NCBI GenBank assembly: GCA_046861385.1
Contig: JBHHTW010000036.1
Location: 1-20,604 of the forward strand
Source of the DNA: Fidelibacterota bacterium
Lineage (GTDB): Bacteria > Fidelibacterota > Marinisomatia > Marinisomatales > TCS55
Direction of reading: 5' to 3'
Length of the DNA: 20,604 bases
Shown here: piece by piece, positions 6,660 to 20,109 of the stretch
How the letters are laid out: each line of letters begins with the position of its first letter
How positions within the stretch are numbered: the stretch's first letter is position 1
Notes under the pieces: model-generated
The model's database searches: none
What the model saw: the letters and a program-made list of their open reading frames with translations, nothing else
Told to the model about the DNA's origin: nothing
Program-made: the position numbers and the translations under genes

Positions 6660-7810
6660 CAGGCGGATGCAGCCTGGATTAATGAAAATCCATACTTTTT
6701 ACGGATATTGTCAATAGCTTGATTCAACGAACGATTATTTTGATATTGGGTTTTTTCGAATAATTCAACTTGATGAGATACCTGCCGGAAATTTGATGCA
6801 TCAATCAAAATAGATCGCAAACGGTTTCGACGGTGATTGGCTTTTTCAAACAGATCCAAACAATCCCGAACAATGGATTGATCATCGTTTTGGGAAAATT
6901 TTCCGGTTTTTGACGATTTAAAACCGTCCGTGTAGTGAATTTCCAGCTTCACTTTCAACGCAATCGAACGCCGCTTGCGGCATTTGAATGCAACCTGTTC
7001 CGCCAGTGTTCGAACAACATTTGCCAGTATGTCCACATCGTTGGTATCGCATTCCATGATCTTTTGTTCGGTGATGCACGAACGTTTTATGGGCGGTTGA
7101 ACACGGGAATGATCCTGGCCGTTGGCTTCTTTGTTTAACTGATTATTATGTTTCCCAAAAATCTCGGTTCCCACTCTGACATTATGCGTGATTTCCCGAA
7201 TTTGATGTACTTGATCCAGCAATAAAAACCGAACCATTTTCAAGACAGTGTTTTCTTGAGCGGTTGGCAAAATTAGAGAATTCAACGGAGATAGAAATTT
7301 CGATTCTTCGCCGTAAGATACTTTATGAATTTTTTCAGGAATGACTTCTGTAGAAATCTGGCTGATTAATTTATTTTGACTAATACCTACATGACTTTCC
7401 ATCTCAATTTTGGTTTTAAGATCATCGAGGATAACCTCGCCGGCTTGAACAGGGTTTTTATAAACCAAGTCCATACCCGTCATATCCATAAAATATTGTC
7501 CAAACACAGTGGGTTCAACAATGGGTGAATATTTGGCAACTGCTTTGTAAATATAGGAATTCATTCGTGAATAAAGCGTATTGTTGTAAGGCAAAAGTAG
7601 TGCCGAGTGGGACATCTTTCTGGCAAGGGAAACTTTCATCCCGGCGAAAAGGCCATCCTGTGCGGCTTCATCAGAAAGCGAAATGATCGTGCCGTTTGGA
7701 TGGTGGGAAGAAATAATGGCAACAGCCCTTGTCCGCAGGGCTGGATCAAGCAAACGCTCAGCATTGAGTTCGAAATCTGACAATCGAATATGATAGACAG
7801 ACTGGTTCAT
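6659..7810 (-). CDS. imuB: ImuB-like Y-family polymerase homolog, probably catalytically inactive
   Basis: DinB-like fold motifs (SDEAAQDGLFAGM, YSPIVEP, VGISQNKLIS, AIDNIRKKYG); catalytic acidic residues missing (HIRLSDF instead of HxDxDxF; VFGQYFMD instead of SIDEAYLD); clamp-binding-like QVELF. Confidence 0.8.
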   Translation of the reverse strand: MNQSVYHIRLSDFELNAERLLDPALRTRAVAIISSHHPNGTIISLSDEAAQDGLFAGMKVSLARKMSHSALLLPYNNTLYSRMNSYIYKAVAKYSPIVEPTVFGQYFMDMTGMDLVYKNPVQAGEVILDDLKTKIEMESHVGISQNKLISQISTEVIPEKIHKVSYGEESKFLSPLNSLILPTAQENTVLKMVRFLLLDQVHQIREITHNVRVGTEIFGKHNNQLNKEANGQDHSRVQPPIKRSCITEQKIMECDTNDVDILANVVRTLAEQVAFKCRKRRSIALKVKLEIHYTDGFKSSKTGKFSQNDDQSIVRDCLDLFEKANHRRNRLRSILIDASNFRQVSHQVELFEKTQYQNNRSLNQAIDNIRKKYGFSLIQAASA

Positions 7811-7862
7811 ACTTTACTATCAATAATAATCATTTTTAAAACCTAGTCTTCAATATGATTTT

Positions 7863-7914
7863 CACCACCCCACGAGACCCCTCCTCATACGAGGAAGGGG
7901 ATTAAGGGGTGGTG
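7863..7914. repeat. REP-like nested hairpin
   Basis: Outer arms CACCACCCC/GGGGTGGTG; inner CCCCTCCTC-atac-GAGGAAGGGG. Confidence 0.65.
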
Positions 7915-8050
7915 TTAAATATTGTGTTTTTTTAAATTGTTTACTATAGACAGACATAGTTCATGTTTTATTATTACTCTGGCGATAAATAATGTTAAAC
8001 TTTCTGAAGGATAAAAATCGTTATATGAAAAATCAATATCCATTATTAGA

Positions 8051-8169
8051 ACCCCTTTGTGTTTCCCCTATGATCCGCCTACATTTCAGTTCCGGCGGAT
8101 AGGCAGGGGAAAAATTTAGGATAGAACCATTACCTTCTCCCCTGTAATAGGGGAGAATGAAAGAGGGGT
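8051..8169. repeat. REP doublet (REPIN-like) with a nested ATCCGCC/GGCGGAT element
   Basis: Left unit ACCCCT...TTTCCCCT(8062-8069)...AGGGGAAA(8105-8112) with ATCCGCC(8073-8079)/GGCGGAT(8094-8100) in its loop; right unit TTCTCCCCT-gtaat-AGGGGAGAA(8135-8157)...GAGGGGT. Confidence 0.6.
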
Positions 8170-8219
8170 CTTTAAAAATGGATAAACTCATGGTTTCATA
8201 CGATTTCAATACCGGAGTA

Positions 8220-8813
8220 CTAATAATTTCTGAATACATGCAGAACAACACCGCCGATTCGAAACTCATCTTCCGGAGAAACATGAATAATATCGAAATC
8301 AGGGTTCCGGGGATGAAGCTCGACCCCGGACGCCTTGGGATAATATCGTTTTAATGTTGCTTCACCGTTCACGTAGGCAATAATCGTCTGCCTTGCTTCT
8401 GCCTGTTCGGCTTGTTTGATGATCACATAATCGCCATCTTCGATGTTGTCATCAATCATAGAATTTCCCCGAACTTGAAGTACAAAATTTGAAGGATGAG
8501 CCCATGATGGCGGCACTTCGACCATTTCCCTGTTTTCAATGGCTTCCAGCGGATAACCCGCTGCGATTCTCCCCAGCAATGGCAATTGGTTTGACAGATC
8601 ATCGACAACAGCAAGGGCACGTTTTCCACTAAACCCTTTTTCCCGCTGCAAATGACCGGACTTGATTAATTCCCGGATGTACCAACTCACCGTACCCACA
8701 GACTTGAATCCCAACCCTGTCTTAATTTCTTCAAACGTTGGCGATTCCTCATTTTGGATAATGAAGTTTTGAATGAATTCTAATATTGATTTTTTCTTTT
8801 TTGAAAGTATCAT
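8220..8813 (-). CDS. lexA: LexA repressor
   Basis: N-terminal wHTH (SPTFEEIKTGLGFKS); Ala-Gly cleavage site GRIAAGYP; catalytic Ser in VRGNSM and Lys in EATLKR. Confidence 0.95.
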   Translation of the reverse strand: MILSKKKKSILEFIQNFIIQNEESPTFEEIKTGLGFKSVGTVSWYIRELIKSGHLQREKGFSGKRALAVVDDLSNQLPLLGRIAAGYPLEAIENREMVEVPPSWAHPSNFVLQVRGNSMIDDNIEDGDYVIIKQAEQAEARQTIIAYVNGEATLKRYYPKASGVELHPRNPDFDIIHVSPEDEFRIGGVVLHVFRNY

Positions 8814-9013: not shown

Positions 9014-9835
9014 ATGGTTCAATTATTAAACACACAGAAATCCTCCCCGAATTTGTCACTCCAAAATGGGTCTGTAATAAAAACATTTCAGATACTTGAA
9101 CAGTTTACGAGAGAAAATCCTGAACTGACCATAAACGATATCGCAAGACCCACCGGGATAAATCGTTCAACGGTCTTTCGGTTTTTGAATTCTTTACAAT
9201 CATTAGGAATAATTGAAAGGACTGATGAAGGGTTATACAAATTGGGTATTCGGCTTTTTGAGCTCGGAATTCGCGTGGATGTTAATCAGTCTATTGTAGA
9301 CAAAGCGCAGCCATATTTACGGGAACTATCAAATCGAGTTCAAGAGTCTTCATGTTTATCCATACGTGACAGAGTGGATGCGCTCTGTTTAGTTAATGAG
9401 GAGTCTGTACAGAATATTCGCATAGACATCCCGGTGGGAACCAGAAATCCCATGTACTGTACGTCAATGGGAAAAGCGATTCTAGCTTTCATGGATTCTG
9501 AATTTTTAGATTTATATTTTGACATCACTGAATTAAGGAAACGAGCAACCAACACGATAACGACAGAATCAGAAGTGCGAAGTGAACTTAACCGAATTCA
9601 AAGTTCATTTATTAGTTATGATGAAGAAGAGTTTGCTGCTGATGTTTATTGTATCGGAACACCAGTCTTTGACATTAATGAACACCCGGTAGCAGCCATT
9701 AGTATATCTGGTTTGATGAGCAGAATAATCGATCAAAAAGATTCGATTTCAGAAGCAGTACTGTACGCTGGAAAGATGATTACAAAGGCAATTGGCGGCC
9801 ACTATCCGTCTAGGTATTCAACCAAAATATATTGA
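9014..9835 (+). CDS. IclR-family transcriptional regulator
   Basis: HTH SVIKTFQILE...GINRSTVFRFLNSL...YKLG; effector-domain motif PMYCTSMGKAILA and VAAISISG. Confidence 0.93.
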   Translation: MVQLLNTQKSSPNLSLQNGSVIKTFQILEQFTRENPELTINDIARPTGINRSTVFRFLNSLQSLGIIERTDEGLYKLGIRLFELGIRVDVNQSIVDKAQPYLRELSNRVQESSCLSIRDRVDALCLVNEESVQNIRIDIPVGTRNPMYCTSMGKAILAFMDSEFLDLYFDITELRKRATNTITTESEVRSELNRIQSSFISYDEEEFAADVYCIGTPVFDINEHPVAAISISGLMSRIIDQKDSISEAVLYAGKMITKAIGGHYPSRYSTKIY

Positions 9836-9996
9836 AAATAAGTTGATAATGATTTTTTGCAAACAAATTTCTGATTAAAAAAAATATCGTACTTTTTTTA
9901 AAATCAAAAAACAGGATAAAATGATCAAATCATCTCAATATGAATATTAATTCAAAATTATATTTTTTTAACTAAACCAACAAGGATAACCAAGTT

Positions 9997-11853
9997 ATGG
10001 CAAATGAAAAAACAGGAAGGTTCCCGGATCCTCATGAATATGAAGTTCCAGCTAACCTTGAGGGGTGGGAGGAAATGTATCCTTCCCATCAATTATTTTC
10101 TAGTGAAAGAAAAGAATGGGAAAAAAGTCAGTTCTGGTTTCAAGATAAGATTCATGCACCGGAAGCTATACCACCGCTGGATCATATTTTTCAGGAAGCG
10201 TGGCAGATTTCATTATCTCAGTATTCTACCCGTGTATTTTGTATACCTCCGGCTCAGGGAATCGCTCAAAGAATGGTGGGATGTTATTTATATATCTGTG
10301 CCATTGCGCCCCCTCCCGATGAAGTGATCGGAGAAAAAGCCCAACGATTTGAAAAACGGGTATTTCCGGTTTTTAAAAATTATGATCAGCTCTGGGAAAA
10401 ATGGCTGGTCAAGTTCAAAGCGCTCGGAAAAGAAATGGATGAATTGGATATTCCTCATGAGCTGCCGGAATTTATACCGGAAGAAGATGTGTTTCCTGAT
10501 TTAAAAGGATGCTATGTATCCTATGACATCATGGAGAAATTTGACCGGTTAGTGAATATGATGTTCAAGGGATGGCAGTATCACTTCGAGATGCTGAATT
10601 TATCCTATCTGGCATACCTGATGTTTGCTGATGTAGCTCGGAATTTATTCCCGGGAATCAGCGAAAGTTCCATCGGAAAAATGGTTGCCGGTGCTTATGT
10701 GGCCATGTTCCGTCCGGAAGAAGAACTATGTCAACTGGCCAGATTAGCTCATTCCCAACGGGGTGTTTCAGATATATTGAAAAGTGACTCCTCTGTGAAT
10801 GAGAAAGTAGACCAATTAAAGAACTTAACAGATGGAAGAAACTGGTTGGATCACTTTGATAATATTAAAAGTCCATGGTTCTTTGTCTCCTGTGGGAGTG
10901 GTTGGTATCATCATGAAGGAAGCTGGATTACCAATCTGGAAATTCCATTCGGATATATTAAAAGCTATCTCGAACAACTGGATAATGGAGAAACCATCGA
11001 AAGATCATTGGATAAAATAGAACAGGAGCGGGATCAAATTGTGGCAGAATACCGCGGATTGATTTCGACAGATGAAGATAGAAAAACATTCGATGACACG
11101 TATGAAACCATTCGGTCTATTTACCGATATGCTGAGGATCATTTATTCTGGGTTGAACATTGGTTTCATACCATCTGGTACAGCAAGGTCAGAGAATTCG
11201 GACAACTTCTGGTTAACTCTGAGATGTTAAATGAAGTGGATGACATATTTATGTTCAACCGCTATGAAATTCCGGAACTACTGACTGAATTATCCACTGG
11301 TTGGGCACTTGGAGTGAATATTCCCATGAGAAGCGATTACTACAAAGCAAAAGTTGCGAAACGTAAGGAAATCCTTGATGCTGCAAGAGAATGGAATCCA
11401 GATCCAGCATTGGGCATCCCTCCCGAAGAAATCGCTGAACCCTTTACTATTATGCTTTGGGGGATAACCACCGACAGAGTCCAGGAATGGTTGAAAGGAG
11501 TTGATGGTTCATCCGGGAAAGATGTATCTGAAATTAAAGGGTTTGCATCGTCAGCCGGAGTAGCTGAAGGATCGGCGAGGGTTTTGAAGCTTCTGAAGGA
11601 CATTGTCAAAATACAACCTGGTGAAATACTGGTCTGTGCTTCCACCAATCCTTCATGGGCTCCCATATTCACAAAAATAAAAGGTGCTGTAACCGATATC
11701 GGTGGATTAACCAGCCATGCTGCAATCGTTTGCAGGGAGTATGGGATTCCTTCAGTTACCGGTACTGGGGTTGCTACTACAGCAATTAAAACGGGTGATA
11801 TGATTCGGGTAGATGGTGATACAGGAGAAGTATCTATCTTGAAACGAGCCTAA
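9997..11853 (+). CDS. ppsA: Phenylphosphate synthase subunit A-like protein (PEP-utilising mobile His domain)
   Basis: N-terminus FPDPHE...EGWEEMYP, EAWQISLSQ, WQYHFEMLNL and EDHLFWVEHW resemble Thauera PpsA (from memory); phosphohistidine motif TDIGGLTSHAAIVCREYGIP with His574 (codon 11716-11718). Symbol used in the phenylphosphate-synthase sense. Confidence 0.85.
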   Translation: MANEKTGRFPDPHEYEVPANLEGWEEMYPSHQLFSSERKEWEKSQFWFQDKIHAPEAIPPLDHIFQEAWQISLSQYSTRVFCIPPAQGIAQRMVGCYLYICAIAPPPDEVIGEKAQRFEKRVFPVFKNYDQLWEKWLVKFKALGKEMDELDIPHELPEFIPEEDVFPDLKGCYVSYDIMEKFDRLVNMMFKGWQYHFEMLNLSYLAYLMFADVARNLFPGISESSIGKMVAGAYVAMFRPEEELCQLARLAHSQRGVSDILKSDSSVNEKVDQLKNLTDGRNWLDHFDNIKSPWFFVSCGSGWYHHEGSWITNLEIPFGYIKSYLEQLDNGETIERSLDKIEQERDQIVAEYRGLISTDEDRKTFDDTYETIRSIYRYAEDHLFWVEHWFHTIWYSKVREFGQLLVNSEMLNEVDDIFMFNRYEIPELLTELSTGWALGVNIPMRSDYYKAKVAKRKEILDAAREWNPDPALGIPPEEIAEPFTIMLWGITTDRVQEWLKGVDGSSGKDVSEIKGFASSAGVAEGSARVLKLLKDIVKIQPGEILVCASTNPSWAPIFTKIKGAVTDIGGLTSHAAIVCREYGIPSVTGTGVATTAIKTGDMIRVDGDTGEVSILKRA

Positions 11854-11865
11854 ATGCGTTATATT

Positions 11866-11910
11866 TGTGTAACAGAGGATGGATGATTAATTCCAATCCT
11901 CTGTTACACA
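11866..11910 (+). other. Long intergenic stem-loop between ppsA and ppsB
   Basis: TGTGTAACAGAGGAT (11866-11880) and ATCCTCTGTTACACA (11896-11910) form a perfect 15-bp inverted repeat; no plus-strand U-tract. Confidence 0.75.
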
Positions 11911-12012
11911 TAAGGGATTGATGAATAGTTATCGAAATAATCCCCTGTACAATTTCTAACGAATTAATTTTAATGAGGATGCTTTAACAATGAATGAACA
12001 AATGAGTCGAAA

Positions 12013-13080
12013 ATGAAACCTATTATTAATTTCAAATCTATCGATAAAGGATTTCTAAATATGGTAGGTGGGAAAAATGCCAGTCTTGGAGAAATGATCA
12101 AAGCAGGCATCCGTGTTCCCCAGGGGTTTGCCGTCACTACCGAAAGTTATCTTCACTTTATCACAAAATACGGAATCATCGACAAAATTTATTCCATGTT
12201 GTCAAATGTGGATGTCGATGACATAAAAGCTTTGGATATTGCAAGTCAAAAAATTCGAGCTTCAATAGTGAGAACACCCATGTCCAGTGAAACGCAGACA
12301 TCCATATGGAAGGGATATGAAGAATTAGGCCGGGAATACCACGACAGGAATATTCCTGTTGCGGTTCGGTCGAGTGCCACAGCAGAAGATCTTCCGACAG
12401 CCAGTTTTGCGGGACAACAGGATACGTATCTCTGGACCATCGGCATTGCTCAGGTTCTTGCAAATGTAAAACGGTGCTGGGCAAGCCTCTTTACATCCAG
12501 GGCTATTTCCTATAGGATCAAAAACGGTTTTTCCCATGAAGATGTATTGATCAGTGTTGGAATTCAAAAGATGGTCAGTTCAAAAACATCCGGAGTTATG
12601 TTTACACTTAATCCATCCAATGGAGACCCGTCTAAAGTAGTGATAGAAGGAAGCTGGGGTTTTGGTGAAACTGTGGTTGGAGGATATGTCAATCCAGACA
12701 AATTTGTCGTAGATAAAGTGACTCAGGAAATAAATGAGAGAAAAATATCACAAAAACACATTGAATGTGTTTATGATCCCGACTTGGATGAAGTAGTACA
12801 AACAGATGTGAAAGATGAATTACAGCTGGAAAGATGTTTACGAGATGAGGAAATCAGGGAGCTTGTAAGAGTCGCTAAAATTATTGAAAAACATTATGGT
12901 TACCCCCAAGATATCGAATGGTCAATAGATAAAGATTTATCGTTTCCCGAGAATGTATTTATTGTCCAGAGTCGGCCGGAAACCGTTTGGAGCCAAAAGA
13001 AGAAAAAACCAATTCTCGGTGGAAAAAGCAGTTATCAAATCATGATAGATCGGGGATTAAAACGAATCAAAATTAAATAA
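12013..13080 (+). CDS. ppsB: Phenylphosphate synthase subunit B-like protein (ATP-binding N-terminal domain of PEP synthase)
   Basis: VGGKNASLGEM, VAVRSSATAEDLPTASFAGQQDTYL, PQDIEW, VQSRPETVWS; stand-alone 355 aa without His or PEP domain. Confidence 0.88.
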   Translation: MKPIINFKSIDKGFLNMVGGKNASLGEMIKAGIRVPQGFAVTTESYLHFITKYGIIDKIYSMLSNVDVDDIKALDIASQKIRASIVRTPMSSETQTSIWKGYEELGREYHDRNIPVAVRSSATAEDLPTASFAGQQDTYLWTIGIAQVLANVKRCWASLFTSRAISYRIKNGFSHEDVLISVGIQKMVSSKTSGVMFTLNPSNGDPSKVVIEGSWGFGETVVGGYVNPDKFVVDKVTQEINERKISQKHIECVYDPDLDEVVQTDVKDELQLERCLRDEEIRELVRVAKIIEKHYGYPQDIEWSIDKDLSFPENVFIVQSRPETVWSQKKKKPILGGKSSYQIMIDRGLKRIKIK

Positions 13081-13132
13081 CCTTTCAAAACCAACATTCA
13101 CAAAAACAAATAGAAACGGAGGATTTCAATCC

Positions 13133-14533
13133 ATGAAAGACATGAGAGATTTTATTAAGGAAGGGGAGAAAATAGGGATAGTTAAACGGATTACAGCAGA
13201 AGTGGATCCCTACCTGGAATTATCCCATATTGCCAAGCTCAATGAAGAAGAACGAGGCCCCGCTTTACTCTTTGAAAATATTAAGGGATATAGCTCACCA
13301 GTGATTACTAGTGTTTGTACAACAGAAGAACGGTTAGCATTTATCATGGGAATGCCGAGAGAATCAACCCTTTTTGATTTATATGATTCCTGGGCCAAAC
13401 GGGGAGAAACATTAATTCCACCCCGCTTTGTAGAAACAGCACCCTGCAAGGAAAATATTTTGCTGGGAGACGATATTGACCTTTACCGATTTCCCATTCC
13501 CCATTATTATCCTCTGGATGGAGGGCCTTATTATGGAACGGCACATTTTGTGATTACGAAAGACCCGGATTCCGGATGGGTCAATCTTGGAACTTACCGG
13601 GGGCAGCTGTTTGAGAAGGATAAAGTCGGAACTCAGTTTATCAAAGGGAAGCATGCTGACATCATGCTGAAAAAATATCAAGAACGAGGCGAAAAAATGC
13701 CAGTGGCTTCTATTTCCGGATGTGATCCCTTATTATTCATTCTTGGGGCATCCAGAGTATCTGCATTTGTGTCCGAATATGATGTGGCAGGCGCACTTCG
13801 GGGCGAACCGGTGGAGGTGATAAAAGGTGAAACAGTGGATTTACCTGTTCCTGCCATGGCTGAAATGGTGGTGGAAGGTTTTGTTGATCCGGAAACATTC
13901 TATGAAGAAGGACCCTTTGGCGAATATACAGGGTATTACTCAGGCGTCGGGGCTGATCCGAGAAATTTTATCCAGGTCACCTGTATCACCCATCGAAATA
14001 ATCCCATTCATCATGGAACGACGGTTGGACGAGCGGTAACGGACACCCACATGACGATGGCTCTTTCCTACGGAGCTACCCTTTGGCAGCAATTAAATGC
14101 CATGAAAATTCCCGGACTGAAATCCTGTTACTGTCCACCGGAAGGATCCGGTAGGTTTCTGGCCATCATTTCAATTAAGCAAATGTATCCAGGACACGTG
14201 GACCAGGTGTTGACTGCTGCAATCTCAACTGAGATGGGAGCTTATGGACTTAAAACAGTCATTGTAGTAGATGATGATGTGGATCCGTGGGATATTCCCC
14301 GGGTGATGTATGCATTAAGTTTTCGGTTTCAACCCAATCGAAGCCAAGTGATCAAAAGAGGACGTTCTACCCCCTTAGACCCGTCTTTGCCCATCCATTC
14401 CCGTGAAATAACAGGCCGGTTGCTTTTGGACGCTACAATTCCCTACGAATGGAAAGATAAACCGATCCCGATTGAATTAGATCCCAATGTTGTTGCAAAA
14501 GTAAAAGCCCGATGGTCCGAATTAGGATTTTAG
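13133..14533 (+). CDS. ppcB: UbiD-family prFMN (de)carboxylase, phenylphosphate carboxylase beta-like
   Basis: UbiD motifs PALLFENIKGY, DGGPY, NLGTYR, EGPFGEYTGYY; PpcB-like segments GRAVTDTHM, IKRGRSTPLDP and DATIPYEWK. Confidence 0.85.
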   Translation: MKDMRDFIKEGEKIGIVKRITAEVDPYLELSHIAKLNEEERGPALLFENIKGYSSPVITSVCTTEERLAFIMGMPRESTLFDLYDSWAKRGETLIPPRFVETAPCKENILLGDDIDLYRFPIPHYYPLDGGPYYGTAHFVITKDPDSGWVNLGTYRGQLFEKDKVGTQFIKGKHADIMLKKYQERGEKMPVASISGCDPLLFILGASRVSAFVSEYDVAGALRGEPVEVIKGETVDLPVPAMAEMVVEGFVDPETFYEEGPFGEYTGYYSGVGADPRNFIQVTCITHRNNPIHHGTTVGRAVTDTHMTMALSYGATLWQQLNAMKIPGLKSCYCPPEGSGRFLAIISIKQMYPGHVDQVLTAAISTEMGAYGLKTVIVVDDDVDPWDIPRVMYALSFRFQPNRSQVIKRGRSTPLDPSLPIHSREITGRLLLDATIPYEWKDKPIPIELDPNVVAKVKARWSELGF

Positions 14534-14536
14534 TCC

Positions 14537-15784
14537 ATGGCAAGTCAAAAAACCATTCTCATTATCGCCAATCTGGATACCAGAGGTTATGAATTCAAGT
14601 TCGTAAAAGAATTAATTCAGTCCAGAGGGCACCGTGCCATTCTTCTGGATTTCAGTATGGAACAAGAACCTTTTTTCGAGGGTGACATCACTTGCGAAGA
14701 AGTGGCCGAAGCTGGAGGAATCAGCAATATTCAGGAGGTTCGCCGGTTATATAGATCTGAACGGCAGAAAGCCACCCAAAACCAAATCTCCGGGGCAACT
14801 CTAATTGCAAAAGCGTTGCTCAAAGAAGGTAAAATACATGGCATCCTAGGTGTGGGAGGAGGAACCTCTTCACTGGTATCAACGAGCATTATGAAATCCA
14901 TGCCCTTTGGAATGCCGAAATTGATGGCTTCCAGTATGGCTGGTCATCCAAAGTATGTGGGTAAATATGTGGGGACTAAAGATATTACGATGCTCAATAC
15001 AGTCGTTGATGTGGTGGAACTTAACCCAATCCTCAAAACGCAGCTCATCAATGCAGTCGGTGCCATTTGTGGAATGGTGGACATTTCTCCCGGCTGGAAA
15101 GTGGAATTTGAACAGCCAGTCGTTGCCATGACATCCTTTGGTTTTGCCGAGCGTGCTGTGGAACCCTCTATCCACTTTCTGCGGGAAAAGGGTTATATCC
15201 CGGTCCCATGTCACGCCCAGGGACGAGGAGACCGGGCCATGGATGAACTCATTCGGGAAGGATGGTTTCAGGGGGTCATTGATTTCGTGACCCGGGGGAT
15301 TGGAGAACAGCTTTTGGATGGAAATTGTGCGGCTGGGAATGACCGAATTTTGGCTGCTTCAGAATCAGGTATTCCCCAAGTAGTGGCTCCTTCCGGATTG
15401 GATATGTTGAGCATTGGGGGTCGAAAGGATTTAATAGAAAAATATAAGGATCGGCCACAAGCCGTGATTGATGAGTTAAGGATTGAAGTCAGGACGCAGG
15501 TTCAAGAATTGGAAGAAATGGCATCCATTATGGCCAGTCGATTAAATGCCTCGACGGCTCCTTGTGCCGTTCTAAACCCTTTAAAGGGTTGGAGTTCATT
15601 GGATGAAAAAGGACATACCCTTTATGATCCCGAGGCAGACCAGGCTTTTATGGATGCATTGAAATCAAATCTGAAACCTCACATTCAAATCAAAGATATC
15701 GAACTTCATTTGAATAGCCCTGAATTCGGAAAAGAAGCATTCAAATGTTTCCATCAACTATACAGTAGCTGGAAACAATCTTAA
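14537..15784 (+). CDS. UPF0261 / Tm-1-like ATP-binding domain protein
   Basis: IANLDTRGYE, GVGGGTSS...MKSMPFGMPKLMASS, YVGTKDITMLNTVVDVVELN, HAQGRGDRAMDELI, GIPQVVAPSGLDM, PLKGWSSLD. Confidence 0.85.
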   Translation: MASQKTILIIANLDTRGYEFKFVKELIQSRGHRAILLDFSMEQEPFFEGDITCEEVAEAGGISNIQEVRRLYRSERQKATQNQISGATLIAKALLKEGKIHGILGVGGGTSSLVSTSIMKSMPFGMPKLMASSMAGHPKYVGKYVGTKDITMLNTVVDVVELNPILKTQLINAVGAICGMVDISPGWKVEFEQPVVAMTSFGFAERAVEPSIHFLREKGYIPVPCHAQGRGDRAMDELIREGWFQGVIDFVTRGIGEQLLDGNCAAGNDRILAASESGIPQVVAPSGLDMLSIGGRKDLIEKYKDRPQAVIDELRIEVRTQVQELEEMASIMASRLNASTAPCAVLNPLKGWSSLDEKGHTLYDPEADQAFMDALKSNLKPHIQIKDIELHLNSPEFGKEAFKCFHQLYSSWKQS

Positions 15785-15788
15785 AATC

Positions 15789-16208
15789 ATGGATACGGAC
15801 CATTCTGTATTTACGGTCACTACTCATGAAGGATCTTATGATTTGACCGCCAGTATCCGGTTCATCGGAAAAGATATTCTGATTGCTGTTTGGGGAGGCG
15901 ATACTCCCCATATTGGTGCCGTTGCCACCTCCCAGTCTCAGGAAAGTATTGTGAATCCAAAGAAGAATAATGCCACCGTTTCTATTTTTTGCTTTCCGGG
16001 TCACATGGAAGATCGACTGATAAAACCAATTGCAGAGAAAGTGGCCTTATTTTCAGAATCAAATGTCGTTGTTACCGGAGGAACACATTGGAATAACATA
16101 GACAACGTAGGTATTCAAAAAGTGTTAAAAAATGGTCATGTATTAGCAGACTTAATTATGAAAATATTATTAGAAAATAGAAAACAACTCATGAAAGTAG
16201 AGCCATAA
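15789..16208 (+). CDS. LpdD-like prenylated-flavin binding/chaperone protein
   Basis: IGKDILIAVWGGDTPHIGAV...GHMED...VVVTGGTH resembles L. plantarum LpdD (GGxxPHIG, AGIH; from memory); TAATG overlap with ubiX. Confidence 0.7.
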   Translation: MDTDHSVFTVTTHEGSYDLTASIRFIGKDILIAVWGGDTPHIGAVATSQSQESIVNPKKNNATVSIFCFPGHMEDRLIKPIAEKVALFSESNVVVTGGTHWNNIDNVGIQKVLKNGHVLADLIMKILLENRKQLMKVEP

Positions 16209-16768
16209 TGTCCAAAAAAATAATAATCGGAATTTCGGGAGCCAGTGGTGTGATCTATGGTGTAAAGCTTTTGTCCGTTTTAATGGAAAAAGATATAGAA
16301 ACACATTTAATTATTTCAGAATCCGGAGAAAAAAATCTTCAAATTGAAACAGATTACCAAATAGATGATGTAAAACAAATGGCCTCCTATGTTTATAATC
16401 CTAAAAACATGGGTGCAAAAGTATCCAGCGGTTCCTTTTTAGTGGATGGAATGGTGGTCGTTCCCTGCACAATAAAGACACTTTCTGGTATCGCAAATTC
16501 TTATTCTGAGAATCTGATTGTTCGAGCCGCCGATGTAACATTGAAAGAGAAAAGAAAATTGTTATTGGTCGTCAGAGAAACGCCGCTTCATAAAGGACAT
16601 TTGAATTTGATGCTCAAAGCATCTGATCACGGCGCACAGATAATGCCGCCGGTACCTTCCTTTTATCATAATCCTAAAACCATTGATGATATTATCGACC
16701 AAACCATTGGGAAGATACTGGATTATTTTAATATTGAGCATCATCTATTTCAACGGTGGGGAGAGTAA
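16208..16768 (+). CDS. ubiX: Flavin prenyltransferase UbiX
   Basis: IIIGISGASGVIYG, SSGSF, PCTIKTLSGIA, RAADVTLKEKRKLLLVVRETP, PPVPSFYHNP. Confidence 0.96.
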   Translation: MSKKIIIGISGASGVIYGVKLLSVLMEKDIETHLIISESGEKNLQIETDYQIDDVKQMASYVYNPKNMGAKVSSGSFLVDGMVVVPCTIKTLSGIANSYSENLIVRAADVTLKEKRKLLLVVRETPLHKGHLNLMLKASDHGAQIMPPVPSFYHNPKTIDDIIDQTIGKILDYFNIEHHLFQRWGE

Positions 16769-16779
16769 GCGAAACTAAA

Positions 16780-18108
16780 ATGTGCTATTCATTGCCCTAT
16801 TGGAATCCTTTCCTTGAGACATTGCCATCGGAAAAAATCCGAAAGCTCCAATTAAAGAAATTCAAAAGAATATTTTCCTGGGCATATCATCAGTCCAAGT
16901 TTCATCGAGGACTCTACGAAGAAGCAGGAATTAAACCGGGAGATATTCAATCGATGGCTGATCTCACCCGGATTCCCACAGTAGAAAAATCAATGATGAG
17001 AGATATCCAGGGTAAAGCACCGTTTCCGTATGGGGATGCCCTTTGTGTCCCCTTGTCAGATGTAACAGCCTACAGGCAAACCAGCGGGACGACAGGACAA
17101 CCCGTCTATCAGCCGGATACATGGCAGGACTGGGAATGGTGGTCGGAGTGCTGGGCTCAACTGTTATGGGCACAAGGCTACCGACCGGAAGATCGTGTTT
17201 TCATTCCTTTTGGATATAACGTATTCGTTGCTTTTTGGGCTGGACATTATGGTGCAGAAAAAATCGGCTGTGAAGTCATTCCTGGAGGCGTACTGGATAC
17301 CCGGGCAAGAATTTTGAAAATACAGGAATTAAATGCCACAGCCATGATGGGAACACCCACCTATATGCTGGGAATGGCGGACGTGGCCCGGAATGAACTA
17401 GGGATAGAACCATCGGAGTTATCGATCAATAAAATTACCTGTGCTGGAGAACCGGGTGCTAGTATCCCCAGTACTAAAAAACGTTTGGAAAACGATTGGG
17501 GTGCGAAAGTGTATGACCATGCCGGAGCCACTGAGATCGGTGCATGGTCTTTTGAGTGTCTGGAACAGCCGGGAAGCATGCACGTGAATGAAGGATTATT
17601 TCTGGTGGAAATTGTGGATATGGATACTGGAGAAACAATTGAAGATCCTGGTGTAAAAGGGAAAATGGTTATCACCGCCCTGGATCGCCAGGCCCAACCC
17701 TGTATACGGTTTGATTCAAAAGATATCATTGAATGGGATCCAGAACCATGCGCTTGCGGAAGAACTTCCAGAATGATTAAAGGGGGTGTTTTAGGTCGAA
17801 CGGATGATATTACAAAAGTAAAAGGAGTTCTATTTTCTCCAACTTCTATCGAAGATGTAGTTAGGGGAATTGAAAGATTGGGCAATGAATATGAATTACA
17901 GATAGAAGAAGTAAATCATCGGGATATTATCAAACTCCAGGTGGAAGTTTTAGAGGGGTCACAGGATTATATAGATGAAATTCGTTTCGAACTATCTGAT
18001 CAACTCCGGTTGAAAACCAATTTAAATTATGATATTACTTTTCACAGTTATGGAGATTTACCCAGATATCCGGTGAAAGCAAAACGGTTTAAGGATCTTA
18101 GAAAATGA
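16780..18108 (+). CDS. Phenylacetate-CoA ligase (PaaK) family aryl-CoA ligase
   Basis: ANL motifs QTSGTTGQP, AGEPG, DHAGATEIG, IRFDSKD, GRTDDITKVKGV, KAKRFKD; ATG 16780 preferred over the GTG at 16756 that overlaps ubiX. Confidence 0.88.
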   Translation: MCYSLPYWNPFLETLPSEKIRKLQLKKFKRIFSWAYHQSKFHRGLYEEAGIKPGDIQSMADLTRIPTVEKSMMRDIQGKAPFPYGDALCVPLSDVTAYRQTSGTTGQPVYQPDTWQDWEWWSECWAQLLWAQGYRPEDRVFIPFGYNVFVAFWAGHYGAEKIGCEVIPGGVLDTRARILKIQELNATAMMGTPTYMLGMADVARNELGIEPSELSINKITCAGEPGASIPSTKKRLENDWGAKVYDHAGATEIGAWSFECLEQPGSMHVNEGLFLVEIVDMDTGETIEDPGVKGKMVITALDRQAQPCIRFDSKDIIEWDPEPCACGRTSRMIKGGVLGRTDDITKVKGVLFSPTSIEDVVRGIERLGNEYELQIEEVNHRDIIKLQVEVLEGSQDYIDEIRFELSDQLRLKTNLNYDITFHSYGDLPRYPVKAKRFKDLRK

Positions 18109-18284
18109 ACAAAAAAACAAATTTAAAAAATATAGATCAGGAAATAAAATCTTTAAAAAAGACTGCCCGGTCTTTAATGGAGGATTCCAAGTCCATTCCA
18201 ACTATTCAGAAAAATACGTCACGGATTCTTTCCAGTATCAAAATGATGGAAATAAATATTTGCGATTTGGTTGATTTGGACTAA
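18105..18284 (+). CDS. Small 59-aa helical protein (not in ORF track)
   Basis: ATGA overlap with the ligase stop; MNKKTNLKNIDQEIKSLKKTARSLMEDSKSIPTIQKNTSRILSSIKMMEINICDLVDLD*; amphipathic two-helix pattern. Confidence 0.7.
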   Translation: MNKKTNLKNIDQEIKSLKKTARSLMEDSKSIPTIQKNTSRILSSIKMMEINICDLVDLD

Positions 18285-18691: not shown

Positions 18692-19057
18692 TCAGGGGGC
18701 TGATATTGTGAATGAATGCGTATGTCCTCCATTTAATGAAGATGTTTTAACAATGGTTTCACCCATTTCTAAAGACTGGAAATCTGAGGTTGTTAAAACG
18801 ATGCTGTGGCTGTGACCTCCATTAGATGTACTGGTGAGTGTTTTGCTTGATTGGGGAGGATTTTCAATATCACTGGTTTGGATTGTTATGGAATGTGAGT
18901 GACCGCCATCGTAGGATGAGGTGACAACAAAGCTATCGGATGTATTGTCATTACTGGAACGCAACGGAATGGAATCATCCTCACAGCTTATGGACTCAAT
19001 CACAAGCGGAATGGCAACCAATCCGGAAATTTTTCGAAGAAATAGTCGTCTATTCAT
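18692..19057 (-). CDS. Putative Tat-exported lipoprotein with three GGH(S/T)HS repeats (possible metal binding)
   Basis: MNRRLFLR twin-arginine motif, lipobox-like SISC, repeats GGHSHSI, GGHSHSI, GGHTHSF. Confidence 0.72.
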   Translation of the reverse strand: MNRRLFLRKISGLVAIPLVIESISCEDDSIPLRSSNDNTSDSFVVTSSYDGGHSHSITIQTSDIENPPQSSKTLTSTSNGGHSHSIVLTTSDFQSLEMGETIVKTSSLNGGHTHSFTISAP

Positions 19058-19437: not shown

Positions 19438-20109
19438 ATGAACGTATTTGAATTTATCCGGGGAAAAACAGATAATCTTCAGGGAAATGTTGCTCAGTTC
19501 AGGGCAAAATTAGAACCCAAATTTCGCCATTGGTCAAATACTCTCAATGATAAAATAACAAATACATTGAATAATCCGTGGATGACGAATCTTATTCCAT
19601 TTGATGGAAAGCTTTTTTCATCAGAAGAGGTCATTCAAAATAAGACAGCAAAAAAAGTCTATATTGACCTGAAAAAGCGACTCGATCAAGAAATATTTGT
19701 TGGAGATTGGAAAATGATTGATCAGGAATGTATCAATCAATTTGCAGAGGTAACTGGAGATAAACAATGGATTCATACAGATCTGGAACGTGCCAGTAAA
19801 GAATCGCCGTTTAAAACTACGATTGCTCATGGGTTTCTAACTTTATCATTGATACCAAAGTTAACCAATGCCCTGGATTCTTTGAATCATATGATCCCTG
19901 ATGCAAGATTGATTGTTAATTACGGATTAAATCAAGTCCGTTTTCCATTCCCGGTAAAATCAGGTTCAAGGGTCAGGGCGCGCACGCGCCTCATCAAAGT
20001 TACTCCCATTAAAAATAGTATTGAAGTAGTCAATGAGGTTAGTATAGAAGTAGAAAATAGAAAACGCTTTGCCTGTGTTGCAGAGACAGTCGTCCATCTC
20101 TACTTTTGA
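19438..20109 (+). CDS. MaoC-family (hot-dog fold) dehydratase with N-terminal extension
   Basis: QFAEVTGDKQWIHTD, IAHGFLTLSL, NYGLNQVRFPFPV. Confidence 0.88.
   Translation: MNVFEFIRGKTDNLQGNVAQFRAKLEPKFRHWSNTLNDKITNTLNNPWMTNLIPFDGKLFSSEEVIQNKTAKKVYIDLKKRLDQEIFVGDWKMIDQECINQFAEVTGDKQWIHTDLERASKESPFKTTIAHGFLTLSLIPKLTNALDSLNHMIPDARLIVNYGLNQVRFPFPVKSGSRVRARTRLIKVTPIKNSIEVVNEVSIEVENRKRFACVAETVVHLYF

Follow-up and report, generated by a model that had tools for sequence, protein, structure and literature searches.

Could a single compact operon enable a marine bacterium to activate phenol without oxygen? The question is raised by a window of 20,604 nucleotides (the whole stretch of DNA analysed here) from a Marinimicrobia bacterium, in which nine genes probably constitute one catabolic operon with a predicted role in the O2-free activation of phenol, or of a monohydroxy aromatic much like it. 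Directly established are the genes present, their order and coupling, the families they belong to, their key motifs, the conservation of synteny and the existence of a downstream pathway; the host genome, apparently a 2.4-Mb Marinimicrobia MAG and 97.85% complete, was searched as well.

Layout and regulation of the locus

According to the ORF listing, nine co-oriented ORFs occupy positions 9014–18284 of the + strand. The spacings from the first gene to the ninth are 161, 159, 52, 3, 4, −1 (TAATG), −13 and −4 (ATGA) bases; among the last six genes, two junctions thus leave 3 and 4 bases and the others overlap by 1, 13 and 4 bases. A ligase start at the ATG at 16780, in place of the GTG at 16756, would turn the −13 into +11. 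These coordinates bear out an earlier sequence-only reading of this DNA, which had described nine co-oriented genes with the last six tightly coupled. The identical nine genes in the identical order were found in three other loci (L003, L004 and L025), and eight of the nine in L005 and L029, whose contigs begin just upstream of PpsA. Because this order recurs, the arrangement is beyond chance.

The first gene (9014–9835, +) encodes an IclR-family transcriptional regulator of 273 aa, and the regulator type named in that reading is confirmed by Pfam matches to HTH_IclR (52.5 bits) and IclR_C (127.4 bits). The best NCBIfam model is that of the PcaR/PcaU/PobR subfamily (150.5 bits, under the cut-off of 284.75). 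Counterparts with 71–82% identity occupy the same position in L003, L004 and L025. Within the IclR-ppsA spacer lies an imperfect 20-bp palindrome (9915–9934, inverted repeat I6) centred on TGATC, the core columns of which do not vary when the four Marinimicrobia spacers of the window, L025, L003 and L004 are aligned. The IclR protein probably controls the operon by binding to this candidate operator. Such a regulator is specific to the Marinimicrobia version, whereas a divergent LysR is present instead in four annotated Desulfobacterota loci.

Split dikinase

The second and third genes correspond to the two parts of a split dikinase. The PpsA-like subunit (9997–11853, +; 618 aa), the putative aryl-binding, phospho-histidine carrier, scores 865 bits on NF006153 against a cut-off of 578. 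Its residues 539–610 form a PEP-utilizers mobile domain (Pfam), and it carries the GGLTSHAA motif with His574, while no PDB relative was found by sequence for its first ~500 residues. The nearest ESM Atlas cluster bears the automatic name 'putative Phenylphosphate synthase subunit A', which is recorded here as a lead only. The PpsB-like subunit (12013–13080, +; 355 aa), the predicted ATP-binding domain, matches PPDK_N with 401 bits (Pfam) and aligns only to the N-terminal third of PEP synthase models and PEP synthase structures.

Then, is phenol itself the substrate? Three sister NCBIfam models give the PpsA-like protein 589–611 bits, below their cut-offs. It thus scores best on a subfamily of its own, and consequently a different phenolic substrate is possible. 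The same architecture would then serve another aromatic nucleophile, either a dihydroxy phenolic such as catechol or hydroquinone (yielding protocatechuate or gentisate) or a substituted phenol, and the CoA ester would be dehydroxylated by one of four Hcr/XDH-like enzymes. Indeed, contigs C73 and C56 of the genome carry two HcrA-like genes each, four in all, the 120 close PpsA relatives listed are all unnamed or have generic enzyme names only, and the organisms named among them are all MAGs or higher taxa. However, the best Hcr-like set is closest to 4-hydroxybenzoyl-CoA reductase models, and the gene families of the operon match a phenol-induced cluster of Desulfatiglans anilini described below. 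Another phenolic is accordingly considered unlikely, and phenol or a close relative is the preferred substrate.

Carboxylase and prFMN module

The fourth gene (13133–14533, +) encodes a single PpcB-like UbiD-family (de)carboxylase of 466 aa, the only UbiD-family gene in the whole genome. All three UbiD Pfam domains are present, and R156 together with E259-GPFG-E264, invariant in 32 aligned relatives, fits the UbiD motif RXnEX4(E/D) (PMC5818171). On TIGR02724 (phenyl_P_beta) the protein scores 475.4 bits against a cut-off of 468.95, a margin of only ~6 bits; this marginal standing as a PpcB equivalog is one more point in favour of another phenolic.

The LpdD-like protein (15789–16208, +; 139 aa) matches PF21758 (PAC_bac/LpdD) with 98 bits and the PDB entries of LpdD 8po5 (E 2.5e-8), 8pzh and 8p4w. 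LpdD is reported as a chaperone that binds prFMNH2 and activates UbiD enzymes, with His35, His61 and Asp63 as metal ligands (PMC10865409). As read off the PDB-match alignment, these residues correspond to H41, H72 and E74 of the window protein, a probable prFMNH2 chaperone, and of 21 aligned relatives, 20 have the triad His-His-Glu and one has His-His-Asp. The adjoining gene (16208–16768, +; 186 aa) encodes a UbiX flavin prenyltransferase (NF004685, 261.4 bits vs 188; TIGR00421, 242.8 bits vs 108.9).

The three proteins could also be read as a reversible hydroxyarylic acid decarboxylase of the LpdBCD/VdcBCD type that runs in the decarboxylating direction, the dikinase genes being unrelated neighbours. 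LpdD and UbiX are reported as the partners of the gallate decarboxylase LpdC (PMC10865409), and UbiD matches VdcC with 313 bits and UbiX matches VdcB with 249 bits, both below cut-off. However, the PpcB model gives UbiD a higher score than VdcC does, and PpsA-PpsB-UbiD adjacency is kept in 56 loci from several phyla. Moreover, the operon's CoA ligase and the reductive pathway of the genome suit a carboxylated product, whereas decarboxylation would yield phenol, for which the cell would have no other route. Such a decarboxylase is therefore extremely improbable, and carboxylation is the direction adopted here.

The absence of ppsC, ppcA, ppcC and ppcD, as claimed earlier, holds within the bounds of the window; across the genome, the only PpcD-like match reaches 126.8 bits against a cut-off of 281.95. 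The PpcC model has no match in the host genome, nor in any control genome.

Comparison with known phenol and aniline clusters

The "non-canonical" label given to this gene set in the earlier reading is at best partly apt, and the comparison does not support it as a framing. As described in the published accounts, the phenol (phe) cluster of D. anilini contains PpsAB and only a PpcB homologue with no ppcC, the stand-ins for ppsC and ppcD being unlinked AcuB-like and KdsC-like proteins only, and G. metallireducens has the same reduced set (PMC6114531). A 2018 comparison describes PpsAB, PpcB and the UbiX-like PpcY as a core common to syntrophs and to sulfate, iron and nitrate reducers (PMC5946492). 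PpsAB with a single PpcB and UbiX is thus the published core of strict anaerobes (Geobacter, D. anilini, Syntrophorhabdus). The phe cluster also holds, according to the supplement, a UPF0261 protein, a PaaK-like ligase, UbiX and a 62-aa protein; it is phenol-induced, and phenylphosphate synthase activity was reported in extracts (PMC6114531). The families in the window are the same, as judged from their names, the sizes of the proteins and the content that the clusters share. As to whether a like gene set had already been characterised, the gene families largely have been, in the D. anilini phe cluster, but the gene order has not. The operon amounts to a pared-down version, carried by an uncultured marine bacterium, of the phenol phosphorylation and carboxylation gene set of strict anaerobes.

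A route for aniline like that of the D. anilini ani cluster, in which a phenylphosphoamidate synthase and a carboxylase lead to 4-aminobenzoate and its CoA ester, would use similar parts: that cluster has a split dikinase and a PpcB-like UbiD alongside an acyl-CoA synthetase and the UPF0261 protein 03869, and D. anilini PasAB phosphorylates phenol too in vitro. However, the D. anilini aniline carboxylase needed two different UbiD subunits, compared with one in the host genome, and the Pas-alpha and Pps-alpha of D. anilini share only 26.7% identity. The ani cluster has another ligase type and, as described, no UbiX, whereas the PaaK-like ligase and UbiX make the window operon resemble the phe cluster. 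Nor would aniline be expected as a substrate in seawater or vent fluids, which also counts against this route. Aniline is thus a very improbable substrate, and the phenol-type reading is retained.

The UPF0261 protein

The fifth gene (14537–15784, +) encodes a UPF0261 protein of 415 aa, the only one in the host genome, with both the N domain (166.9 bits) and the C domain (207.5 bits). Its best PDB match is 9MPY (E 9.7e-47, residues 3–402), that is, MarK, the only assayed member of the family, reported as an ATP-dependent kinase of phenolic hydroxyls that yields ADP (PMC12624787). D14, T15 and K16 of MarK align to D14, T15 and R16, and the phenolic-oxygen ligands Gly195 and His219 to G202 and H226. 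The ketone ligand His348 and the stacking His304 of MarK are replaced by L355 and I311, a loss that counts against the MarK-type reading of the protein. Such a Leu/Ile replacement of substituent-binding residues would suit a plain ring and so may argue against another phenolic.

In the published proteome tables, the phe UPF0261 protein 02057 has values of 2.5e9, 4.2e9 and 6.7e8 in phenol-grown D. anilini cells and of 5.3e7, 3.0e8 and 1.9e8 in benzoate-grown cells, and the ani protein 03869 is reported only from aniline and 4-aminobenzoate cells (PMC7500099 supplement). Despite this induction, the term UPF0261 does not appear in the main texts on D. anilini.

Alternatively, the protein may serve the cofactor and not the aromatic substrate, for example by converting prenol to dimethylallyl phosphate for UbiX or by helping prFMN maturation without O2. 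It lies directly 5′ of LpdD and UbiX in the window, and four annotated Desulfobacterota loci have the order UPF0261, an HD or LMW-phosphatase-like gene, LpdD and UbiX. The oxidation of prFMNH2 in strict anaerobes is noted as an open problem (PMC10865409). However, the ani cluster, without UbiX, still has its aniline-induced UPF0261 gene between the kinase and ligase genes, the Gly195 N and His219 equivalents are invariant in 17 of 17 proteins of the window's subtype, and the sole assayed relative acts on phenolic hydroxyls. We therefore regard a cofactor role as decidedly unlikely. Most likely, the protein is a MarK-type phosphotransferase acting on the same phenolic oxygen as the dikinase; it may serve as a second aryl kinase, one that forms ADP, or else stand in for the missing PpcD as the carboxylase's partner in handling the aryl phosphate. 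A UPF0261 protein is not strictly required for the sister reaction, which is counted against this main reading. Both accessory proteins now have precedents, LpdD in the prFMNH2 chaperone and UPF0261 in the MarK fold.

CoA ligase and downstream pathway

The eighth gene (16756–18108, +; 450 aa from GTG) encodes a PaaK-family aryl-acid CoA ligase with AMP-binding and AMP-binding_C_2 domains (Pfam); its 224 bits on TIGR02155 (PaaK), against an equivalog cut-off of 646, place it at the family level only. Its counterpart in the phe cluster, the 'phenylacetate-CoA ligase' 02049, was proposed as a 4-hydroxybenzoate-CoA ligase (PMC6114531). The ligase stop is overlapped (ATGA) by a conserved 59-aa ORF (18105–18284, +), which has no Pfam family above threshold. 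Counterparts of this ORF with 52–80% identity occur in five Marinimicrobia loci (L003, L004, L025, L005 and L029), and in L012 and L080, two loci of Desulfobacterota, ORFs with 37–42% identity lie 3′ of the PaaK-like ligase. According to the supplement, the 62-aa hypothetical protein adjoining the D. anilini ligase gene was detected in cells grown on phenol and hardly at all in others.

Contig C73 of the same genome carries a BCR-like, Dch-like, Had, Oah and Hcr-like benzoyl-CoA route. Oah (559 bits vs 464) and Had (436.5 vs 338.65) exceed their cut-offs, while the Dch-like protein (232 vs 292.5) and an HcrA-like protein (836.9 vs 994.55), accompanied by beta-like and gamma-like subunits, fall below theirs. 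BcrC-like (266.5 bits) and BcrB-like (195.8 bits) proteins are best matches below cut-off, and two activase-type subunits are also present. Tyrosine phenol-lyase was not found in the host genome, so that phenol has no evident source inside the cell.

Distribution and acquisition

PpsA is present in 9 of 401 genomes of the phylum searched; in this one sample, Oah occurs in eight of the nine, compared with 40 of the 401 overall. Near-identical UbiD and UPF0261 share a contig with PpsA in the seven genomes with uncut contigs. Dozens of Desulfobacterota MAG loci carry the same core, with PpsA 72–78% identical to that of the window. Among the 27 informative loci (those with PpsA, a UbiD >60% identical and at least 6 kb of DNA 3′ of UbiD), UPF0261 and UbiX lie within 6.5 kb after the carboxylase in 26 and 24, respectively, and an LpdD-like ORF is found anywhere on the locus in 16. 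A 78-row PpsA tree unites the window, L025, L005, L003, L029, L004 and L006 in one clade (SH-aLRT 100), and nearly all rows outside it have Desulfobacterota-type labels. This Marinimicrobia lineage thus appears to have gained the operon in a single event, with a Desulfobacterota-like donor; the tree is midpoint-rooted only, which leaves the direction of transfer tentative.

Proposed route

The likely route leads from phenol or a close phenolic through an aryl phosphate to 4-hydroxybenzoate and its CoA ester; we infer the substrate, the carboxylase direction and every step alike. PpsB would bind ATP, and His574 of PpsA would relay the phosphoryl group to the oxygen of the phenolic substrate. 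The prFMN made by UbiX and handed over by LpdD would load the single UbiD, which would carboxylate the ring para to the oxygen. The ligase would then form the CoA thioester, and the C73 Hcr-like and BCR-like reductases, Dch-like hydratase, Had and Oah could lead through benzoyl-CoA to aliphatic products. The gene calls of the earlier reading and the sequence from aryl phosphate to carboxylated acid to CoA thioester with its own prFMN supply, as first proposed for this DNA, are supported by the protein families and by the benzoyl-CoA pathway elsewhere in the genome. The compactness of the operon draws attention to one kinase-like protein, little studied so far, that may supply a part missing from the chemistry of phenol phosphorylation and carboxylation.

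Organization of the operon and its surroundings

The window is the entire contig C68 (20,604 bases) of a 2.43-Mb genome in 104 contigs, with a completeness of 97.85% and a G+C content of 38.9% as computed by script. Nine ORFs on the + strand occupy positions 9014-18284 in the ORF listing, the first encoding an IclR regulator according to Pfam and NCBIfam, and the last a 59-aa product without a Pfam family. Between these two come, in this order, genes for a PpsA-like, a PpsB-like, a UbiD-family, a two-domain UPF0261 and a PAC_bac (LpdD-like) protein, UbiX and a PaaK-family ligase. The intergenic spacings are, in order, 161, 159, 52, 3, 4, -1, -13 and -4 bases, where -13 turns into +11 when the ligase gene is started at the ATG at 16780. 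The sequence-only reading had claimed nine co-oriented genes, the last six tightly coupled, at this place, and since the ORF listing, the family matches and the spacings agree, this observation is confirmed as stated. Between 8700 and 19500, we counted 32 promoter-like sites (29.8 expected from shuffles) and seven terminator-like sites (9.4 expected), both of which are uninformative. No RNA run among the sequencing runs found by search matched the window, and no reading on expression is drawn. Strong DNA matches occurred only in four runs of one hydrothermal-vent sample, from which the window may itself derive and no habitat reading is drawn, and four marine DNA runs contained small shares of the window.

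Divergent from the operon, a group of genes on the - strand (3684-8813) resembles an SOS-mutagenesis cassette. It comprises LexA (8220-8813; TIGR00498, 141 bits, over the cut-off), an 83-aa ORF without a family (8033-8284), a Y-family polymerase with IMS and IMS_C domains (6659-7810) and a DnaE-type polymerase of 991 aa (3684-6659), for which the scores of the error-prone DnaE2 model (538 bits) and of DnaE (665) are both below cut-off. On the other side of the operon, a 121-aa protein is encoded on the - strand (18692-19057); its N-terminus is signal-peptide-like, and the motif Gly-Gly-His-(Ser/Thr)-His-Ser recurs in each of its three repeats. It has no Pfam family and only a weak match to YmaF (E 0.22), and may be secreted and bind metal. 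Beyond a gene-poor, AT-rich stretch of 1.1 kb downstream of the operon lies a MaoC-like dehydratase gene (19438-20109, + strand), whose 223-aa product has an N-terminal extension of about 85 residues without a family.

Dikinase and carboxylase subunits

The PpsA-like protein, encoded on the + strand, matches NF006153 with 865 bits, while Pfam recognizes only its C-terminal PEP-utilizers mobile domain (PF00391, 89.5 bits, residues 539-610). This domain has the phospho-histidine feature of the alpha subunit, namely the motif GGLTSHAA with His574 as the phospho-histidine, whose equivalent in Desulfatiglans anilini is His569 (excerpts of PMC7500099). The PpsB-like protein is a separate ATP-binding beta subunit, with PPDK_N (PF01326, 401 bits, residues 16-334 of 355 aa) as its sole Pfam domain. 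According to the ORF listing and Pfam, there is no PpsC within the operon; the PpsC stand-in of D. anilini is an AcuB-like protein, 25% identical, which showed no induction by phenol (excerpts of PMC6114531). The ESM Atlas cluster nearest to PpsA carries the automatic name 'putative Phenylphosphate synthase subunit A', which is taken as a lead only. Among the PpsA homologues listed (120 of 1920), all are unnamed or bear generic enzyme names and none names a cultured strain; they offer no bridge from PpsA to a characterized enzyme.

The UbiD protein narrowly passes the PpcB equivalog TIGR02724 (475.4 bits vs. a cut-off of 468.95), and its UbiD_N, UbiD and UbiD_C domains are all found by Pfam. 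The RXnEX4(E/D) motif, needed for UbiD catalysis (excerpts of PMC5818171), is present as R156 and E259-x4-E264 and is invariant in 32 relatives; the motif residues were matched to those of Fdc1 by spacing rather than by structural alignment. It is the only UbiD-family gene in the host genome (E <= 1e-5; completeness 97.85%). No PpcA partner, that is, a second UbiD-like alpha subunit, was found in that genome, and the single UbiD scores 211.7 bits on the alpha model TIGR02723, whose cut-off is 564.6. PpcC (TIGR02725) had no match in the genome, in a weak search whose model matched nothing in control genomes either. No true PpcD was found in the genome: the best match to TIGR02726 (126.8 bits vs. 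a cut-off of 281.95) lies on another contig and is similar to the KDO-8-P phosphatase that is reported to stand in for PpcD in D. anilini. A quinone-biosynthesis role of UbiD and UbiX was also considered and rejected, with scores far short of the cut-offs (275 against 496 for the menaquinone decarboxylase model and 259 against 788 for E. coli UbiD).

LpdD-like protein, UbiX and ligase

The 139-aa PAC_bac protein on the + strand (PF21758, 98 bits vs. 27) matches solved LpdD structures (8po5, E 2.5e-8). The metal ligands His35, His61 and Asp63 of LpdD align to H41, H72 and E74, so that Glu takes the place of Asp in the window; none of the 21 aligned relatives lacks the triad (Glu in 20 and Asp in one). 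LpdD binds prFMNH2 and helps to activate UbiD enzymes (excerpts of PMC10865409); by family features, the window protein is an LpdD-family member and a putative prFMNH2 chaperone. The UbiX flavin prenyltransferase is identified by its family model (NF004685, 261.4 bits vs. a cut-off of 188). The ligase reaches 224.3 bits on the PaaK equivalog TIGR02155, below its cut-off of 646.3, and its score marks it as a PaaK-family member with a predicted specificity other than phenylacetate.

In Lactiplantibacillus plantarum, LpdB, LpdC and LpdD likewise combine UbiX, UbiD and an LpdD-type protein with a His/His/acidic triad (excerpts of PMC10865409). However, the Lpd system is a gallate decarboxylase, whereas the module set of the window stands in an operon for phosphorylation, carboxylation and ligation, and the LpdD identity is low (E 2.5e-8).

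The UPF0261 protein and MarK

Both Pfam domains of UPF0261 are present in the window protein of this family, whose gene is the only one of its kind in the host genome. The first family member to have a known activity is MarK (Saro_1862) of Novosphingobium aromaticivorans, which uses ATP to phosphorylate acetovanillone and related monomers at the phenolic hydroxyl, forming ADP (excerpts of PMC12624787). Its structure 9MPY is the closest solved relative of the window protein (E 9.7e-47, full length), with moderate similarity overall (162.6 bits over about 400 aligned residues). The printed alignment was read against the MarK residues named in PMC12624787. The nucleotide-site residues Asp14-Thr15-Lys16 of MarK correspond to D14-T15-R16, and the phenolic-oxygen ligands Gly195 (backbone N) and His219 to G202 and H226. 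The ketone ligand His348 and the stacking His304 are replaced by L355 and I311, respectively; the aryl-ketone specificity feature is therefore absent, and the protein is not classed as an acetovanillone kinase. It is classed only as a relative with a possible action on a phenolic oxygen. Across 17 proteins that belong to the subtype of the window (alignment A1 of UPF0261 relatives), D14, R16, G202, F203, H226 and M290 do not vary.

The two proteins share the two-domain UPF0261 fold family, the Asp-Thr-basic nucleotide site and the Gly and His for the phenolic oxygen. However, MarK acts on aryl ketones in an aerobe, and its partners are a biotin carboxylase and a phosphatase, whereas the partner in the window is a prFMN-dependent UbiD, and a dikinase-type aryl kinase is also encoded in the operon. 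A complex prediction for UbiD and UPF0261, based on A1 and on the alignment A2 of UbiD relatives, gave a score of 0.00 and weighs neither for nor against a contact. Within the literature searched, outside of which most subscription journals lie, the MarK report alone was relevant to UPF0261; the term does not occur in PMC7500099 outside its supplement, nor does PMC6114531 belong to the literature found to mention it.

Desulfobacterota loci contain at least two further UPF0261 subtypes. Phenol-type loci of this group (L009, L013, L021, L041, L060, L061, L077, L082 and others) have two to three paralogues of distinct subtypes. The window-like subtype directly follows UbiD, the second follows an AMP-forming ligase and has Ser in most members in place of the substrate-binding His (the position of His226), and the third lies about 3 kb upstream of PpsA.

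Comparison with known phenol clusters

The phenol cluster (phe) of D. anilini, H567DRAFT_02048-02061, resembles the operon in many respects. It has PpsA- and PpsB-like proteins of like size class (70.0 and 39.9 kDa), one in-cluster PpcB-like UbiD (52.2 kDa), UbiX, a PaaK-type ligase beside a protein of about 60 aa, and a phenol-induced UPF0261 protein; ppcC is absent, and ppsC and ppcD exist only as unlinked housekeeping-like genes. In contrast, a second, unlinked and phenol-induced UbiD (ppc-alpha) is found in D. anilini only, as are, within the cluster, Hcr genes, a 552-aa AMP-forming ligase, a 175-aa receiver-domain protein and another gene order, whereas the IclR regulator is a feature of the window. 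LpdD is present in the window and absent from the phe rows examined in the supplement of PMC7500099.

According to excerpts of PMC6114531, the phe cluster is induced by phenol and comprises pps-alpha, pps-beta, only ppc-beta, Hcr genes, a UbiX-like gene and a PaaK-type ligase proposed as the 4-hydroxybenzoate-CoA ligase. The same source reports no ppcC, unlinked AcuB-like and KDO-8-P-phosphatase genes as the ppsC and ppcD stand-ins, and a Geobacter cluster likewise having a ppc-beta homologue only, while PpsAB, PpcB and the UbiX-like PpcY are described as a shared core in excerpts of PMC5946492. The reduced subunit set is therefore an already recognized form in strict anaerobes, and the suggestion of the sequence-only reading that the set is non-canonical is not borne out (PMC6114531, PMC5946492). 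By gene content, namely PpsA, PpsB, one PpcB, a UbiX-like protein and an aryl-acid CoA ligase, the operon corresponds to the strict-anaerobe phenol cluster.

The proteomic data in Table_1 of PMC7500099, as far as the excerpts extend, concern several of these families and go beyond what is discussed in the main texts. The 403-aa UPF0261 protein 02057 has areas of 2.5e9, 4.2e9 and 6.7e8 in three phenol cultures and of 5.3e7, 3.0e8 and 1.9e8 in benzoate cultures, while 03869 of the aniline cluster, a 411-aa UPF0261 protein, is seen only in aniline or 4-aminobenzoate cultures, and a third UPF0261 protein, 02061, is not induced. The 552-aa AMP ligase (02058) and the 175-aa receiver-domain protein (02050) are phenol-induced. 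The 62-aa hypothetical protein 02048, adjoining the ligase gene, was detected in all three phenol cultures and elsewhere in only one 4-aminobenzoate replicate. These rows match the genes of the window and of the related loci by family name, size and neighbourhood.

In Thauera aromatica, whose regulator is sigma-54 dependent, PpsABC/PpcABCD shares with the window the split dikinase (phospho-histidine alpha and ATP-binding beta) and the UbiD-type beta carboxylase subunit, whereas the host genome is without a PpcA partner and a true PpcD, and the operon without PpsC. Geobacter and Syntrophorhabdus, anaerobes of the Desulfobacterota type, have a class II benzoyl-CoA reductase, whereas the host genome has a class I-like reductase and no AFOR/BamB-type gene. 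The Thauera cluster also has the UbiX-like ORF8 and the PaaK-like ORF14, and UPF0261 and LpdD are not among its genes named in excerpts of PMC6114531. Geobacter metallireducens (Gmet_2100-2102) and Syntrophorhabdus share the essential core of PpsAB, PpcB and PpcY, and their descriptions make no mention of UPF0261 or LpdD in the excerpts of PMC1924859 and PMC5946492. The recent reports on anaerobic benzene degradation that were checked contained no relevant cluster.

Conservation and distribution

Species-representative genomes were scanned with PpsA, and the best 80 of 249 relatives were kept. Among these, five loci share the gene order of the window. Four belong to MAGs labelled Marinimicrobia or Neomarinimicrobiota, and the fifth (L025, PpsA 95% identical) to a MAG that is unclassified. 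The IclR gene is included in three of the five (L003, L004 and L025), and the 59-aa ORF occurs in all of them with 52-80% identity. The other loci of the best 80 are nearly all from Desulfobacterota-type MAGs, with PpsA 72-78% identical. Four annotated loci of this type (L009, L027, L041 and L039) have a divergent LysR gene upstream, followed by the order PpsA, PpsB, UbiD, UPF0261, LpdD-like and UbiX. A receiver-domain protein of about 175 aa comes after UbiD in three of the four and upstream in L009, and an AMP-forming ligase of about 550 aa comes after UbiD in all but L039. Ahead of the LpdD-like gene, there is an HD gene in L027 and a low-molecular-weight-phosphatase-like gene in L009.

As informative loci, we took the 27 that have PpsA, a UbiD >60% identical to that of the window and at least 6 kb of DNA downstream of this UbiD, shorter loci being dropped. 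UPF0261 lies within 6.5 kb downstream in 26 of the 27, UbiX is present in 24, an LpdD-like ORF in 16 by profile search, and a PaaK-like ligase in four. The operon is thus a conserved arrangement and not a chance one.

A single sample of 401 genomes of the phylum was searched for PpsA, Oah, UbiD and UPF0261. PpsA occurs in nine of them, the host included, and the ring-opening hydrolase Oah (Oah/BamA) in 40 at E <= 1e-100, in 37 of which it exceeds the curated cut-off. The Oah matches are concentrated in the host's order, which suggests that the anaerobic degradation of benzoyl-CoA is fairly common within this lineage of Marinimicrobia. Oah is present in eight of the nine PpsA-positive genomes and missing in one (G303). 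Eight genomes of the sample have a UbiD copy with at least 88% identity, and seven have a UPF0261 copy with at least 81%; both share the PpsA contig in all seven genomes with an uncut contig. In the host's genus, one of the five other genomes has PpsA and four have Oah. Given nine PpsA-positive genomes against 40 with Oah, and the overlap in eight of the nine, the operon is a patchy add-on to a more widely spread benzoyl-CoA pathway; no statistics are claimed for this co-occurrence, since the relatives are not independent.

A tree of PpsA was computed for 78 rows (IQ-TREE quick search, LG+G4). In it, the window forms one clade with L025, L005, L003, L029, L004 and L006 (SH-aLRT 100, stem length 0.2), and the rows outside it have nearly all Desulfobacterota-type labels. 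It is reasonable to infer that the operon was acquired once, from a Desulfobacterota-like donor, although a tree with only a midpoint root does not demonstrate the direction of transfer.

L006, which falls inside the Marinimicrobia clade by its PpsA, comes from a MAG labelled Proteobacteria (UBA5680), with PpsA 82% and UbiD 90% identical to those of the window. Its order is rearranged, with PpsB, UbiD, UbiX and a distant ligase upstream of PpsA and no UPF0261 match. Either a binning error or another transfer event could explain this locus.

Downstream pathway in the host genome

Another contig of the host genome, C73, carries genes of a benzoyl-CoA route, and consequently the product of the operon has a downstream outlet. 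BcrC-, BcrB- and activase-like genes lie at 26358-30445, with benzoyl-CoA reductase models as their best matches, below the equivalog cut-offs. Had (436.5 bits) and Oah (559 bits) are both over their cut-offs, and an adjoining Dch-like gene is below its own with 232 bits. There is also an HcrCAB-like set (alpha 836.9 bits vs. 994.55), together with a thiolase, an acyl-CoA dehydrogenase, an indolepyruvate-ferredoxin-oxidoreductase-like gene and a second XDH-family set.

More broadly, C73 (loci L095-L097) contains an island of aromatic and acyl-CoA catabolism at about 3.5-45 kb, flanked by a REP-associated tyrosine transposase. The island includes a four-gene set resembling benzoyl-CoA reductase plus an extra HgdB-like/activase pair, and its two XDH/Hcr-like sets have three subunits each. 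The indolepyruvate-ferredoxin-oxidoreductase-like gene is fused, and caprolactamase- or acetophenone-carboxylase-like alpha and beta genes stay below cut-off with 657 and 391 bits. Contig C56 carries two further HcrA-like genes. An internal source of phenol from tyrosine was considered and dropped, as no tyrosine phenol-lyase was found in the genome.

Proposed mechanism and role of UPF0261

From the gene content, PpsB and PpsA would phosphorylate phenol or a near relative, after which UbiD, supplied with prFMN by UbiX and LpdD, would carboxylate the ring. The ligase would then form the CoA ester, and the C73 enzymes would perform dehydroxylation, ring reduction and ring opening.

Excerpts of PMC6114531 and PMC7500099 report that phenylphosphate carboxylase activity could not be demonstrated in D. 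anilini extracts, and that the two UbiD subunits together converted phenylphosphoamidate and not phenylphosphate. Therefore, the published picture of phenylphosphate carboxylation appears to be short of one component. Among the conserved proteins of the minimal set, UPF0261 alone has no assigned role, because the Marinimicrobia operon keeps UPF0261 and LpdD and is without the AMP ligase and the receiver-domain protein. Two roles may be weighed for it, cofactor supply and phosphotransfer on an aromatic substrate. The window protein keeps the phenolic-oxygen and nucleotide-site residues of MarK, without those for the acyl side chain, and in the aniline cluster of D. anilini UPF0261 accompanies kinase and carboxylase genes with no UbiX present (excerpts of PMC7500099). 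Because of both observations, a putative role in phosphotransfer is favoured over cofactor supply.

Phosphotransfer could be taken one step further, to a proposal that we consider improbable. UPF0261 would be an unrecognized fourth catalytic partner in the phenol carboxylation of strict anaerobes, holding the aryl phosphate or phenolate at its Gly/His site and carrying out a PpcD-like phosphoryl transfer. The acceptor might be ADP, so that one ATP would be recovered; alternatively, UPF0261 might act as a phenol kinase that spends one ATP rather than two. Such a partner would account for the failure to obtain phenylphosphate carboxylase from D. anilini extracts or from its two UbiDs, for the induction of UPF0261 specifically by phenol and aniline, and for how energy-limited anaerobes afford the activation. 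If this is true, the Marinimicrobia operon represents the minimal set of PpsAB, one UbiD, UPF0261, LpdD and UbiX.

Implications

The operon is real and conserved, and it belongs to the Pps/Ppc phenol clusters of strict anaerobes. It is notable for its host phylum and its compactness, and because it points to UPF0261 and LpdD as components of such systems. In the searched literature, most subscription journals being outside the search, we found no link between Marinimicrobia and phenylphosphate, and in the parts of that literature examined the benzoyl-CoA pathway is not attributed to Marinimicrobia/SAR406. No report tying MarK/UPF0261 or LpdD to the anaerobic phenol pathway was found in the same literature, and the excerpts of PMC10865409 name phenylphosphate carboxylase once, in the reference list only.

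If the reading holds, the operon would represent the phenol cluster of strict anaerobes in a naturally minimal form, which keeps UPF0261 and LpdD and drops the AMP-forming ligase and the receiver-domain protein, their companions in Desulfobacterota. MarK, the UPF0261 kinase described in 2025, and LpdD, the prFMNH2 chaperone described in 2024, would thereby be tied to a classical anaerobic pathway. The search for replacements of PpcA, PpcC and PpcD would become narrower, and the finding would bear on why phenylphosphate carboxylation in D. anilini has resisted reconstitution. Marinimicrobia are a widespread, uncultured marine phylum with small genomes, and the same reading would place in them both the anaerobic activation of phenol and the benzoyl-CoA pathway.
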